A stretch of DNA of 64,000 nucleotides from an uncultured delta proteobacterium. Lineage in GTDB: Bacteria > Myxococcota_A > Polyangia > Polyangiales > Polyangiaceae. Below are positions 1-64,000 of the stretch, piece by piece. The position numbers were made by a program, and so were the translations under genes. The notes below the pieces were generated by a model that worked only from the letters and a program-made list of their open reading frames with translations, was not told the DNA's origin and did no database searches. The first letter of the stretch is position 1. Each line of letters begins with the position of its first letter. Location: assembly GCA_963731595.1 (NCBI GenBank), contig CAVSWE010000003.1:108948-172947 (forward strand). The letters run 5' to 3'.

Positions 1-45
1 GAAACCGCCTCGTCGGAGTCGTCCTCGCGCTCGCCGCGACCGCCT

Positions 46-933
46 GTGGAACGCCCTACCTCCCCGCACCGAATGCCCGCGGAGTCGCCGCAGCCCGAGG
101 GCACGAAGCACGCGCAAGGCGAGCTCGAGGGCGTTGGCCGGACCACGCTCTACTGGCAAAGCTGGCTGCCGACGAAGACGCCGAAGCGCGGCGCGCTCGT
201 CGTCATGCACGGCCTGAAAGATCACTCGTCTCGCTACGCCGACTTCGCGCACGCGCTCAACGAAGCGGGCTACGCGGTCTACGCGCTCGACGCCCGCGGG
301 CACGGCTACTCCGCCGGCGATCGCGTGCGCGTCCTCTTGTTCGACGACTACGTGATGGACTTCGACATCTTCCTCCATCGCGTGCTCGCCGACGAGGACG
401 TGCCGGTCTTCGTCTTCGGCCACAGCATGGGCGGCGCGATTGTCGCGCTCGACGACGTCATGTACCACCCCGACGTCCGCGGGATGATCCTCAGCGGCGC
501 CGCGCTCGACCCCGGCGTCTCGAGCTTCGAGATCGACCTGACGAAGACGACCGCGGCGCTCTTCCCGGACTTCGACGTGTTCAACTTGAACCTGAGCGAC
601 TTCTCGCGCGACCCCGACGTCGTGCGGGCGGGCGAGCACGACCCGCTCGTCTACCAAGGCGCGGCGCCCGCTCACATGGCCGCCGAGCTCGTCGATGGGA
701 TTCGAGCGATTCAGTCGACGATGGAGCAAGTCGACGTGCCGCTCTTGATCCTCCACGGCAAAGCGGACCGCGTGACGCCGCCGCGGGGGAGCCAGGCGCT
801 CTACGCGCGCTCGCGCTCGAAGGACAAGACGCTCACGCTCTACGGAAACATGTTCCACGATCTCCTCCACGAGCCGGAGAAGGCCCAGGTGACGAAGGAC
901 ATCGTCGCGTGGATGAACGCGCGAACGCGCTGA
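46..933 (+). CDS. alpha/beta-hydrolase, lysophospholipase / monoacylglycerol-lipase family
   Basis: ORF 46-933 (GTG start in track). HG oxyanion motif (VVMHGL), GHSMGG nucleophile elbow, C-terminal Asp/His region (KADRV...MFHDLLHE). High GC3. Frame +3 at nt 3-70 encodes a lipobox-like signal (VVLALAATAC), so the true N-terminus may lie upstream of the window or be frameshifted. Confidence 0.75.
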   Translation: MERPTSPHRMPAESPQPEGTKHAQGELEGVGRTTLYWQSWLPTKTPKRGALVVMHGLKDHSSRYADFAHALNEAGYAVYALDARGHGYSAGDRVRVLLFDDYVMDFDIFLHRVLADEDVPVFVFGHSMGGAIVALDDVMYHPDVRGMILSGAALDPGVSSFEIDLTKTTAALFPDFDVFNLNLSDFSRDPDVVRAGEHDPLVYQGAAPAHMAAELVDGIRAIQSTMEQVDVPLLILHGKADRVTPPRGSQALYARSRSKDKTLTLYGNMFHDLLHEPEKAQVTKDIVAWMNARTR

Positions 934-1043
934 CCCTGGATCCGTCGACCATCACGCGAGTGCCGCGTGCGTCGCGAGCGCCCTGGAAATAGCCGAAATC
1001 GCGCGCGGCCGCGTGTGGCGCGCGCGTTGCTCCTCTCCACGCG

Positions 1044-1571
1044 ATGGCGACCAAGCTCACAGTCCCGCGCCCCGGGCCACGCGCCGATCGTGCTGCAAAA
1101 GTGCAAGTGGAGAAGAAAACGCCGCCGCGTCCGCCCGCGACGAAGCCGCCCGAAGCGATGGCGCTCGAGGCGTCCGACGTCGTCGAAGAGATTGACATCA
1201 CCGAGCCGTCGCCGGCGCCGGTCGTCGCGCTCGAGCCGGAGCCGCCGCCTGCGCCCGCGCCGATCGTCGCCGCGCCGCAGCCGGTGATCCTCCCGCCGCC
1301 GCCCGCGCCGATCGATTACCCCACGCCGATGTGGCTCGCGCCGCCGCCGGAGCCGCCGCCCGCGCGAGCGCCGATGCGCTCGATTGCCACCAGCACCGTC
1401 TCGGAGTTCGAGCGCGACAGCATCCGCAAGTCGAGCCCGCCCGTGCGCGAGCGCCGACGGCAGCTCCAGAGGCTCGTCGCGAGCGCAGTCGGCGTCGCGT
1501 GGTTCATCTGCCTCGTCGCGCTCGGTCAGACGGCGCTCCGCACGATCCTCGCGTCGGTGTCGAGCCCCTGA
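1044..1571 (+). CDS. hypothetical Pro/Ala-rich protein with C-terminal transmembrane anchor
   Basis: ORF 1044-1571. High GC3 throughout. Pro-rich low-complexity middle (PEPPPAPAPIVAAPQPVILPPPPAP). Hydrophobic C-terminal helix (VGVAWFICLVALG). Confidence 0.5.
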   Translation: MATKLTVPRPGPRADRAAKVQVEKKTPPRPPATKPPEAMALEASDVVEEIDITEPSPAPVVALEPEPPPAPAPIVAAPQPVILPPPPAPIDYPTPMWLAPPPEPPPARAPMRSIATSTVSEFERDSIRKSSPPVRERRRQLQRLVASAVGVAWFICLVALGQTALRTILASVSSP

Positions 1572-1578
1572 GCGCCGC

Positions 1579-2370
1579 TCAAAATGAGACTTTGAACGCG
1601 AGCCCTGGCGTCGCGACCAGCGGGACCAGCGACATCGTCAGCGCCGGTCGCGGAAGCTTGCCTCGGAGGTAGCGCTGGTACGCGCTGACCGCGCCGGTCG
1701 GTGTCGTGAGGATCTGCGACTCCGTGAGGATGAGCCCGGCGACGCCGTTGCCGACCGCGTTGAGCCAGTGCGCGTCGCGGACGGCCGGATCCGTCGAGGT
1801 CGCGGCCTCGACCGCCATGATCGCGAACATCGCGCCCACGCCGAGGATCGCCGTCACTTGCGTGAGCACGCCGGTGTTGAACGACTCCTCGGCCGCGTCC
1901 TTCGCGAACAGCTCCTCGATGCGCGCGAGGACGAGGCACGATCCGGCCTCGCCGCCGCCGGTCTCACGCAAGAGCTGGTCGACGGCCGGGGCGTCGTCTT
2001 CGACGCGCAGCGCGAAGAGGAGAGAGAAGATGGGCGTGACGATCGAAAACCCCGAGACGACGAGGTTGTCGATCACGTTCGCCTCTCGCGTCTTGTCGTT
2101 GCCGGCAGCCCAGCCGATCGCCTGCGCCGCGCTCGACGCGAAGGTGGCCGTCCCGATCCCGAACCACGCCCACTTCCACGTGCGCGCGTATCGCGCTTGA
2201 TCTTGCATGACGTGATGCAAGAATTCGATGCGCTCGCGCGAGTCGATCGTCGCGAGCCTCGCGTTCGCGCCGTCGGGCACCGGGCACGTGTCGGCTCGCG
2301 CCGCCGTCGCCGCGAGAAGCACCGCGCCCGCGCACCAGCCCGCCCACGTCCGCATCGTCCGACGATACAC
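1579..2370 (-). CDS. hypothetical secreted protein (signal peptide, C-terminal Phe)
   Basis: ORF 1579-2370 minus strand. N-terminal signal-like segment (WAGWCAGAVLLAATAARA). Non-repetitive, protein-like composition. Ends ...AFKVSF. Confidence 0.5.
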   Translation of the reverse strand: MYRRTMRTWAGWCAGAVLLAATAARADTCPVPDGANARLATIDSRERIEFLHHVMQDQARYARTWKWAWFGIGTATFASSAAQAIGWAAGNDKTREANVIDNLVVSGFSIVTPIFSLLFALRVEDDAPAVDQLLRETGGGEAGSCLVLARIEELFAKDAAEESFNTGVLTQVTAILGVGAMFAIMAVEAATSTDPAVRDAHWLNAVGNGVAGLILTESQILTTPTGAVSAYQRYLRGKLPRPALTMSLVPLVATPGLAFKVSF

Positions 2371-2429
2371 GAGCGCAAGGCCGCTGACGCCCTGCGCGTG
2401 TGCTATGTAGCAGACGCACCTGGAGAAGG

Positions 2430-62300: not shown

Positions 62301-62481
62301 CGCGATCACCATGCTCCGCACCGCCGCGCCCATCTCGAAGGGGGTCGCCTACGAGCGCCTCGGCGAAATCGCGATGCACCAGGGCGACAACAAGCGCGCC
62401 GTCATGCTCCTGAAGCGCGCCGTCGACGAGGACGCGACGCTCGAGCACGCCCGCGAGCTCCTCGCGCAGCTCGGCTCCTGA
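50358..62481 (+). pseudogene. giant (~4040 aa) alpha-helical TPR-like repeat protein, apparent frameshift near 53215
   Basis: ORF 50358-53393 is protein-like up to ...LAEDAFVTNAALE (~53215), then Arg-rich. ORF 53113-62481 is protein-like from ...LSNLVEQVAERAEDRELLILAAQKR (~53212) to the stop at 62481. Both are uniformly Ala/Leu/Glu/Arg-rich helical repeats of the same character, so one gene with one indel is most parsimonious. Confidence 0.55.
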
Positions 62482-62502
62482 CGAGGAAGACGGGGCGAAA
62501 TC

Positions 62503-63063
62503 TTGGGGAGGGGAGCCGCCATCGTCTTCGTCGCGTTGCTCGTTCCCGTTTCGGCGTTCGGCGAGGACGAGCGAGGGGGCGGCTTCGATCTGCTGCTCGA
62601 GGGCGGCGCGCTCGCGGGCGTCCACGGCGCTCCTCTGTCGTTCGCGCCCGTCGCCCAGGTCGACCTCCTCGGTCGCGCGCGCGTCGCCAAGCATCTGGCG
62701 TTGACCGGCGGCATCTCCGCGCTTCCCGTTCCGGATGTCTTCTCGCTCGGCGCCATCGGGCGCCTCGAGTGGCTGCCGCTGGACGACGAGCCGCTCGTGT
62801 TCAGCGTCTTCGCAGGAACTCGCCTCCTCGTACTGCAACCGTTCTGCGTCGTCACGACGACCTCCACGTGCTCGACCGAATTCGGCGAGGCCGGCGGCTT
62901 GCTCGGCGAGGTCGGCGTCGCGCTTCGCACGACGCGCCTCTCCGGTTACCGTTTCGGACTGACGCTCTCCGCGGTCGCCGGCGTCGTCGCGCCGTACGAC
63001 GACGCCCAGTCGCTGCGCGCGTTCTACGTCGGTGGTATAGCGGGTCTCGGCGTCACGTTCTGA
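62503..63063 (+). CDS. hypothetical secreted beta-rich protein (C-terminal Phe, OMP-like)
   Basis: ORF 62503-63063 (TTG start in track). Signal peptide ([16 protein letters not shown]). Gly/aromatic-alternating segments. Ends ...GLGVTF. Confidence 0.5.
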
Positions 63064-63070
63064 TCTCCCC

Positions 63071-63988
63071 ATGTACTTCCAAGACATCCTCCTCGCGCTT
63101 CAAGCGTTCTGGGCCAAACGCGGTTGCCTCGTCCTTCAGCCCTACAACTCCGAGGTCGGCGCGGGCACGTTCAACCCGGCGACGTTCCTCCGCACGCTCG
63201 GCCCCGAGCCGTGGAACGTCGCGTACGTCGAGCCCTCGCGCCGCCCGACCGACGGCCGCTACGGCGAGAACCCGAATCGCACGCAGCAGTATCACCAGTT
63301 CCAGGTCATCCTGAAGCCGTCGCCGATCGACATCCAGGATCGATACGTCGAGTCGCTCCGCGCGCTCGGCACCGACGCTGAGCAGCACGACCTCCGCTTC
63401 CTCGAGGACGACTGGGAGTCGCCGACGCTCGGCGCGTGGGGTCTCGGCTGGCAAGTGTGGATCGACGGGCTCGAGATCTCGCAGTTCACCTACTTCCAGC
63501 AAATCGGCGGCTTCGACTGCAAGCCGGTGAGCGGCGAGCTCACCTACGGCGTCGAGCGCATCGCGATGTACTTGCAAGACGTCGACACGATGTTCGACGT
63601 CATGTACGCGCCCGGCATTCGCTACGGCGACCTCTACAAGCGCGCCGAGTGGGAGTGGAGCACGTACAACTTCGAGCAGGCCGACGTGCCCGCGCACTTC
63701 GCCGCGTTCGATCACTACGAAAAAGAGTGCAAGCGTCTCCTCGCGCTCTCCGAGGATCCGATGAAGCGCCTCGTGCTCCCCGCGTACGACTTCGTCACCA
63801 AGGCGGCGCACCAGTTCAACGTGCTCGACGCGCGCGGCGCCATCGGCGTGACCGAGCGCGCGCGCTTCATCGGTCGCGTCCGCGGCCTCGCGCGCGGCGT
63901 CGCCGGCGCTTGGCTCGATCAGCGCAAGGCGATGGGCTACCCGCTGCTCAAGGGCGGCGCGTCGATTCAGGCGGAGGTGCGATCATGA
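63071..63988 (+). CDS. glyQ: glycine--tRNA ligase alpha subunit
   Basis: ORF 63071-63988. N-terminus [19 protein letters not shown] and the whole sequence match GlyQ. Confidence 0.9.
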
Positions 63989-64000
63989 TGAAGGCGGTCT
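63985..64000 (+). CDS. glyS: glycine--tRNA ligase beta subunit, 5' end only (partial)
   Basis: ATG 63985 overlaps the glyQ stop (ATGA) and reads MMKAV... to the window end. Assignment rests on gene order only. Confidence 0.4.

Follow-up and report, generated by a model that had tools for sequence, protein, structure and literature searches.

Nine single-base frame breaks in a Polyangiaceae metagenome contig are very probably consensus errors of the assembly

Real genome decay leaves several lesions per gene that are present in the reads, and it brings with it deletions, in-frame stops and a relaxed codon bias. Programmed frameshifts are kept among orthologues and fall on defined slippery motifs. 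Broken frames can also come from sequencing: both nanopore errors at methylated motifs, GATC among them, and frameshifts in nanopore-only assemblies are on record (PMC12392509, PMC6591954, PMC9262707). IDEEL-type tests measure the gene calls that residual indels fragment in nanopore-only genome and metagenome assemblies (PMC9262707). The methylation-motif errors have been described at Dcm CCWGG, Dam GATC and other motifs, and the published cases are mostly substitutions (PMC6591954, PMC12392509).

We analysed a stretch of 64,000 nucleotides (the window) from a contig of a Polyangiaceae MAG, derived from a soil metagenome and with a GC content of 70%. A Viterbi scan of codon usage, combined with alignments to orthologues that are intact, revealed nine single-base frame breaks across seven genes, at window positions ~70, 11361, 20106, 22648, ~27096, ~39470, ~53218, ~59002 and ~59759. 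Seven of them insert one nucleotide, and the other two delete one:

Site 1, 69..70, plus strand: 1-nt insertion, an extra C in GCAC[C]GAATGCC, in an alpha/beta hydrolase gene.
Site 2, 11361, minus strand: 1-nt insertion, GATCT[C]TTTCC on the plus strand, in a CehA/McbA-type PHP metallohydrolase gene (~10886-13237, minus strand).
Site 3, 20106..20108, minus strand: 1-nt insertion, CTCGAATCG on the plus strand where GATC is expected, in a 283-aa gene downstream of a histidine kinase (HK-coupled gene; 20013-20865, minus strand).
Site 4, 22648, plus strand: 1-nt insertion, GAGCC[G]AAATGCC, in pdxH (22553-23156).
Site 5, 27095..27097, plus strand: 1-nt insertion, GACGC[T]GGTG or GCT[G]GTG, in an OPT oligopeptide transporter gene (26505-28476).
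Site 6, 39468..39471, plus strand: 1-nt deletion, T4 instead of the expected T5, GAT TTT [T]CG AAA TAC, in a GH31 glycosidase gene (38080-40466).
Site 7, 53218..53219, plus strand: 1-nt insertion, GAATC in place of the expected GATC, CTCG[A]ATCTCG, in the gene for a giant helical-repeat protein of ~4040 aa (50358-62481).
Site 8, 59002..59003, plus strand: 1-nt insertion, AACCCC[G]GAAATT, in the same gene as site 7; with site 9 it forms a compensating pair.
Site 9, 59758..59759, plus strand: 1-nt deletion, GAG[A]GCACG, in the giant gene; restores frame 1.

The Viterbi frame calls were cross-checked against stop-to-stop extents, and both showed a same-strand switch of frame, without a stop codon, at each of the nine breaks. 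Codon bias is strong on either side and no further lesions were seen: every site is a lone 1-nt indel in an otherwise undamaged ORF. Other, short excursions of the scan (13607-13730, 14253-14315, 14856-15050, 23140-23341 and others), at which orthologues show no change of frame, were taken as noise or gene-start regions. A previous reading of the window from its sequence only had described six to seven shifts; we saw the one-nucleotide jump at every position that it gave, and the count rises to nine, with three in the giant gene. In the comparison with related genomes that it had proposed, all seven affected genes have orthologues, on soil metagenome contigs and in MAGs, that are uninterrupted at the same position (the intact relatives used were L001/L002, L006/L007/P0150, L011, L015/L016, L018 and P0291). 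When these intact orthologues were aligned by tblastn, the PHP, HK-coupled, OPT, GH31 and giant genes each gave adjacent HSPs in different frames; output obtained without composition correction was excluded, as it held many spurious high-GC matches. The PNPOx, OPT and GH31 Pfam domains are continuous over the repaired junctions of pdxH, the OPT gene and the GH31 gene.

A second assembly of apparently the same reads was provided by Logan, an independent k-mer assembly of run ERR11594406. Six Logan contigs cover 15.5 kb at ~99.8% identity to the window, and the extra base is absent from them at all four break sites that they cover (70, 11361, 20106 and 22648; contigs L009, L017 and L008). At site 1, the break lies between a lipoprotein signal peptide (frame 3) and the hydrolase body (frame 1, stop at 931-933) of a gene with a Hydrolase_4 domain (Pfam); L009 is one C shorter, so that ...LALAATACGTPYLPA runs into RMPAESPQPEG... 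in frame. Site 2, a C placed within a T4 run, adjoins a GATC at 11356-11359. Here the sequence of L017 is GATCT-TTTCC, and its protein (P0171) is intact and identical over the junction (...VRVDGKDPAAIV...); PHP relatives are likewise intact, at 767-794 aa, and the tblastn alignment of the orthologues splits at 11361/11362. Site 3 lies close to the 3' end of its gene: L008 reads CTC-AATCG and has the 283-aa gene called, the other frame matches the final 30 residues of an orthologue at 90%, and the repaired ORF has 283 aa and ends at 20013. At site 4, L008 and two Illumina soil contigs (L006 and L007, both at 95% identity) read GAGCC-AAATGCC, PNPOx_N covers the junction (Pfam), and the predicted junction, VPEPNAMAVATVG, is found in P0150, a relative that is intact at 200 aa. 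The extra bases missing from the Logan contigs, together with the intact proteins of 283 aa and 783 aa (P0171) encoded there, support an artefact. Exact look-up of the repaired pdxH, HK-coupled, OPT and GH31 proteins returned no match; the misses likely reflect Logan versions with GATC-type substitutions, or genes cut at contig ends.

For the other five sites (27096, 39468-39471 [39470], 53218, 59002 and 59759) no Logan contig was recovered, also with the OPT, GH31 and giant-gene junctions as queries, and the basis there was relatives at no more than 83-88% nucleotide identity; near site 6, the Logan contig from a TetR-like neighbour gene ends before the break, and L005 ends 370 nt before it. 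At site 5, the OPT domain aligns over the junction in one stretch (1-622 of the 623 profile positions), the sequence in nine relatives is GSGG(E/D)A-VKKAR, and the DNA of L018 and L002 is shorter by one base. At site 6, tblastn switched frame at 39468-39471 and the GH31 TIM-barrel domain extends over the junction; L002 has T5, and P0291 (85% identical) reads WPGDLDNDFSKYGD, the same as the repaired window. In the giant gene, the relative L011 reads CTCG-ATCTCG at site 7, where tblastn switched frame at 53218/53219. From ~59000, GC3 and the protein-like translation shift to frame 2: L011 is shorter by one base at site 8 (tblastn frame 1 to 2 at 58997-59001) and longer by one base at site 9 (GAGAGCACG; frame 2 to 1 at 59758-59761). 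Because these two sites compensate each other, the giant ORF remains open, and 254 codons of the annotated ORF between them are out of frame. Repair of three bases, at sites 7-9, yields a single 4040-aa ORF that aligns with L011 end to end at 84% identity. The compensating pair was absent from the list of the sequence-only reading.

From these results, we conclude that the nine slips are very probably consensus errors of the assembly in otherwise intact, conserved genes, and not biology; nanopore miscalls in GATC and AT-rich contexts are their presumed origin. We see a very small chance that genuine mutations, and hence real pseudogenes, account for some or all of the frameshifts, as might occur in a decaying or hypermutable lineage. 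In bacteria, indels inactivate genes more often than any other type of mutation, public records list one set of gene fragments, and five sites were judged from relatives; against this, the extra base is missing at each of the four sites testable in an independent assembly of the same population. Each gene has one 1-nt lesion or a compensating pair, with no stops, no secondary lesions seen, and codon bias and identity to relatives (70-92%) undiminished on both sides. The genes hit include pdxH and the gene of 4040 aa that is conserved from end to end. Nine independent inactivations in 64 kb, beside perfectly conserved neighbours, are implausible; the same argument, made earlier for six or seven pseudogenes with errors as the likelier cause, is borne out by the Logan contigs and the intact orthologues. 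There is a very small chance that at least one of the five sites judged from relatives is a genuine mutation in the population. If real, the pair at ~59002/~59759 would be the most interesting candidate among them: 254 residues of a conserved 4040-aa protein would have become an arginine-rich out-of-frame segment.

A consensus that mixes two co-existing strains, in which these sites carry either a minority allele with the indel or a compromise in the alignment of the haplotypes, likewise has a very small probability. Long-read metagenome consensus can be strain-chimeric, the source is a soil metagenome, and relatives at 95% identity occur in other soils. However, the Logan contigs are essentially equal to the window over 15.5 kb except for GATC-type differences, and a second haplotype is not in evidence; such a mixture, if it did exist, would still be an assembly artefact and no feature of any genome. 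Decoding of the shifts in the living cell, whether by programmed ribosomal frameshifting or by slippage in transcription, has a negligible probability: nothing specific speaks for it beyond the A-rich stretch of coding strand at site 2, whereas the frameshifts are common to no relative (the orthologues are single-frame), both +1 and -1 shifts occur, no known slippery heptamers, prfB-type motifs or A/T runs of at least 7 were seen at the sites, and the read-derived contigs need no frameshift. Phase variation was considered and rejected along with frameshifting, slippage and pseudogenisation.

With consensus error as the preferred reading, we assessed its class. The sequence-only reading had placed the indels mostly at homopolymers and proposed a homopolymer-biased long-read assembly. 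We found that a base was gained or lost within a run of at least three only at 39468-39471 (GH31, T4 vs T5), which makes one run-length error among the nine sites, or two at most. The seven sites other than this one and 11361 show no run-length change; they include the OPT shift and the giant-gene shift at site 7, both described earlier as lacking a homopolymer. At three others of the seven, the shift itself is real and the indel lies a few bases from the run named for it: at 69/70 (L009) and not at a C-run at ~62-65, where a possible hydrolase shift had been noted; at 20106-20108 (L008) and not at a G-run at ~20113; and at 22648, as an extra G just 5' of AAA (L008, L006, L007), and not in an A-run at ~22650. 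In the HK-coupled gene, a repair at the G/C run gets three residues wrong; the Logan contig puts the break 7 nt upstream. Runs of at least three occur no more than 5 nt away from 33% of all positions in the window, and no more than 8 nt away from 44%, so that the nearness of the indels to such runs is close to chance level. Support for a homopolymer bias is weak; the error signature still fits long reads, most likely nanopore.

A different context emerged from the comparison of the two assemblies. Logan contigs and the window differ by 19 substitutions, of which about 16 fall in GATC, a pattern characteristic of nanopore reads at methylation motifs. Within the first five contigs, 12 of 13 substitutions are on the G or C of GATC, positions that make up 1.6% of the total, and 12 of 101 GATC sites are altered; in L017, four of six further substitutions are on these bases. 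The Logan contigs also have indels of their own beside GATC, at 219 and 20004. Because the substitutions are so specific to GATC, the Logan contigs appear to share error-prone reads with the window, and so are not orthogonal short-read evidence. Among the window's own indels, sites 3 and 7 both have CTCGAATC in place of GATC and site 2 lies beside a GATC; three of nine within 5 nt of GATC, vs 11% expected, is not significant (p ~0.07), and this association is suggestive. Five of the nine sites lie in 13-mers with at least six A/T, vs 14% of window positions. Together, these patterns point to modified bases in GATC and to stretches that are locally AT-rich.

We propose that the reads probably come from nanopore sequencing of native DNA, and that modified GATC and short AT-rich patches would be miscalled in them. 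Polishing would have mended most such places, and may have left or made a 1-nt indel at a few, as in the change of GATC to GAATC. Our search of literature and supplements for ERR11594406 and neighbouring accessions returned nothing relevant on platform or project; a link of the run to the Microflora Danica nanopore project is a guess.

The error density is ~1 indel per 7 kb (9 in 64 kb, or ~Q38). At this rate, an order of a thousand genes would be broken per such genome, given that relatives' contigs reach 3.6-7 Mb. The expectation that annotation would split or truncate genes has already come true: truncated or chimeric pdxH, OPT, GH31 and giant-gene products of the 345,914-bp source contig are in the NCBI/ENA protein sets, as pieces of 166 aa (pdxH), 218 aa (OPT), 633 aa with a false C-terminus (GH31) and 1011 aa (giant protein). 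In DNA of 70% GC the wrong frame is often open, and hence 254 nonsense residues stand inside an ORF of 3122 aa; a compensated pair of this kind would escape quality checks based on length. The GATC signature suggests a need for methylation-aware polishing over homopolymer fixing. The finding is an ordinary data-quality artefact, relevant mainly to annotation: it holds no biological novelty, and its significance is one of data quality only.

Among known systems, programmed frameshifts (prfB +1, dnaX -1, IS3-family transposases) likewise present two overlapping frames that make up one protein; unlike them, the breaks described here have unshifted orthologues and no slippery motif. Many broken housekeeping and transport genes in a short stretch recall Mycobacterium leprae and recent host-restricted pathogens, but the window has none of the signs of such decay listed at the outset. 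The closest likeness is to indels of nanopore-only assemblies (PMC9262707): single-base indels split full-length conserved genes at ~14 per 100 kb, truncated proteins enter databases, and the indels vanish in an alternative consensus of the reads. In contrast to the classic account of such assemblies, which stresses homopolymer length, one or two of our nine sites are of that type, and insertions prevail over deletions by 7 to 2. As in methylation-motif errors, the differences between Logan contigs and window are nearly confined to the G or C of GATC, with ~12% of copies altered. Whereas published cases of this kind are mostly substitutions, the polished contig here has indels at GATC, where methylation is presumed. 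Bases adjoining GATC are affected as well, and two of the frameshifts are GAATC for GATC.

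Because ORFs stand open in many frames at the window's GC content (68-75% throughout), ORF lists alone are uninformative here. To locate frame breaks, we used a seven-state Viterbi scan with a codon table trained on eleven unambiguous genes, and checked each coding segment against its own stop-to-stop extent. Most frame changes fell at stop codons, i.e. at ordinary gene boundaries. Seven did not (~70, 11360, ~20114, ~22655, 27082, 39469 and 53208), and these are exactly the places at which the sequence-only reading had listed single-nucleotide frameshifts; inspection of the translations showed protein-like sequence changing frame around each. 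A frame-2 island at 58987-59781, within the frame-1 ORF of the giant gene, added an eighth and a ninth break, and systematic tblastn with relatives' ORFs found no further breaks in the window. Pfam, tblastn and DNA comparison with relatives thus bear out the original observation and enlarge it to nine single-base breaks, of which seven are insertions and two are deletions, spread over seven genes.

A comparison with orthologues, as proposed earlier, shows the same genes intact in relatives. A syntenic soil-metagenome contig (L001/L002) encodes intact HK (histidine kinase)-coupled (287 aa), pdxH (196 aa), OPT (656 aa) and GH31 (802 aa) proteins; as tblastn queries these yielded adjacent HSPs in differing window frames, and the DNA differs from the window by one base at each of the four sites. 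SMAG_U5184, an Illumina-based MAG and a closer relative, carries an intact 780-aa PHP/CehA-type metallohydrolase and the giant gene as a single 12.2-kb ORF. Conceptual repair restored one domain stretch across the junction in pdxH (PNPOx_N, residues 22-146), OPT (Pfam OPT, profile positions 1-622 of 623) and GH31 (TIM barrel, residues 227-565). Full-length relatives matched the repaired OPT protein with 100% coverage and identities of up to 89%; at the junction, these relatives read GSGG(E/D)A-VKKAR.

The giant gene has three breaks, as revealed by tblastn of the SMAG_U5184 ORF, which mapped to the window in four pieces (frames 3, 1, 2 and 1). Repairing three bases merges it into a single 4040-aa ORF, aligned with its orthologue over the full length:

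50358-62481: giant gene product, roughly 4040 aa, alanine/leucine/arginine-rich, helical-repeat (TPR-like); 84% identity end to end in Polyangiaceae MAG SMAG_U5184

The pair at ~59002 and ~59759, absent from the sequence-only reading, consists of compensating +1/-1 indels (58997-59761) that do not interrupt the frame-1 ORF. The 3122-aa ORF (53113-62481) therefore includes 254 nonsense residues, arginine-rich and read out of frame, and such a pair is invisible to length-based quality checks of ORFs.

A read-derived comparison came from Logan, in which public runs are assembled independently from k-mers. Exact-sequence look-ups placed intact window proteins both on a 345,914-bp NCBI/ENA contig and in Logan, and six Logan contigs of run ERR11594406, L004, L005, L008, L009, L010 and L017, together cover 15.5 kb of it, with an identity of about 99.8%. 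They span four of the nine breaks, and at all four the window's extra base (bracketed) is missing:

site 70: window CAC[C]GAATGCC; Logan without the C
site 11361: window GATCT[C]TTTCC; Logan without the C
site 20106: window CTC[G]AATCG; Logan without the G
site 22648: window GAGCC[G]AAATGCC; Logan without the G

The HK-coupled gene is called on Logan (283 aa), and the PHP protein is intact (P0171, 783 aa), with its junction exactly as predicted, ...VRVDGKDPAAIV.... At 22648 two 95%-identical Illumina soil contigs share the Logan reading and encode a 200-aa pdxH whose junction is as predicted. Both assemblies contain errors. Beside GATC, Logan contigs carry two deletions: one of 1 nt at window 219 (L009), which disrupts the hydrolase, and one of 2 nt at 20004-20005 (L008), which lengthens the aminotransferase to 418 aa; relatives agree with the window at both.

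Truncated products are already deposited in the NCBI/ENA protein sets of the 345,914-bp contig, as had been forecast: fragments of pdxH (166 aa) and of the OPT N-terminus (218 aa), and pieces of GH31 (633 aa) and the giant protein (1011 aa). Exact look-ups found none of these four among Logan proteins. Could the breaks be genuine? Real pseudogenisation at nine positions in 64 kb is not credible, upholding the earlier argument that even six or seven pseudogenes were implausible: every affected gene carries just one lesion, contains no stops and keeps its codon bias in full, and Logan lacks the extra base at every covered site. Since none of the shifts recurs in an orthologue, programmed frameshifting is excluded. 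Together, the Logan contigs, intact relatives and deposited truncations support the original reading of the frame breaks as gene-splitting indel errors of a long-read assembly, with the read-derived check spanning four of nine sites. They hold no biological novelty.

The proposed homopolymer bias largely did not hold. A plain run-length change is seen at the GH31 site alone (T4 in the window, T5 in L002; a relative 85% identical, P0291, reads DNDFSKYGD at this junction). At the PHP site a C is inserted inside a T4 run directly adjoining GATC, and the other seven sites show no run-length change. Nearness of the breaks to runs of at least 3 is close to chance, as 33% of window positions lie within 5 nt of one. 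Unusually AT-rich 13-mers, by comparison, hold 5 of the 9 sites against a 14% background. The homopolymer mechanism thus largely gives way to consensus errors associated with a motif or with AT patches.

Several other genes lie among those affected. A minus-strand gene (31008-32981) encodes a 657-aa protein, 78% conserved in the syntenic relative, whose orthologue has major-vault-protein shoulder (PF11978) and faint Vault_3 matches. Between it and a methyltransferase lies a plus-strand coding segment of about 390 codons (33150-34319), with no counterpart at the corresponding position of L001/L002. The 1092-aa protein at 23165-26440, whose relatives' versions have no Pfam match, contains around 25261 a Gly/Tyr-rich repeat of GGCTACGG units, with a 6-nt in-frame indel relative to a 95%-identical soil contig (L006).

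The motif concerned is GATC, which occurs 526 times in 64 kb versus ~176 expected from base composition, a roughly threefold over-representation. Of the 13 substitutions that separate the first five Logan contigs from the window, 12 read AATC or GATT for GATC; they alter 12 of 101 GATC sites, and the bases concerned account for 1.6% of positions. In L017, four of six additional substitutions are of this kind. Because relatives side with the window (e.g. FDRAHVE), these are errors of the Logan contigs. At two window frameshifts, 53218 and 20106, CTCGAATC stands in place of an expected GATC: a relative carries GATC at the former, and Logan carries the AATC form at the latter. Two substitutions in the minus-strand PHP gene, both in GATGC/GCATC contexts, are probably errors of the window consensus: Ile at 11559 versus Met in Logan and all five relatives, and Met at 11827 versus Thr in Logan and the two closest relatives.

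That nearly all Logan-window substitutions alter GATC to AATC or GATT suggests that the organism may modify this motif. In nanopore sequencing of methylated DNA, miscalls are described as motif-specific and partly penetrant and as spilling to neighbouring bases, with GATC among the motifs concerned (PMC12392509, PMC6591954), and frameshifted gene calls are a known consequence in nanopore-only MAGs of modest coverage (PMC9262707). Because the error signature fits this published pattern, the window would putatively derive from a nanopore-only, polished assembly of a GATC-modifying organism.
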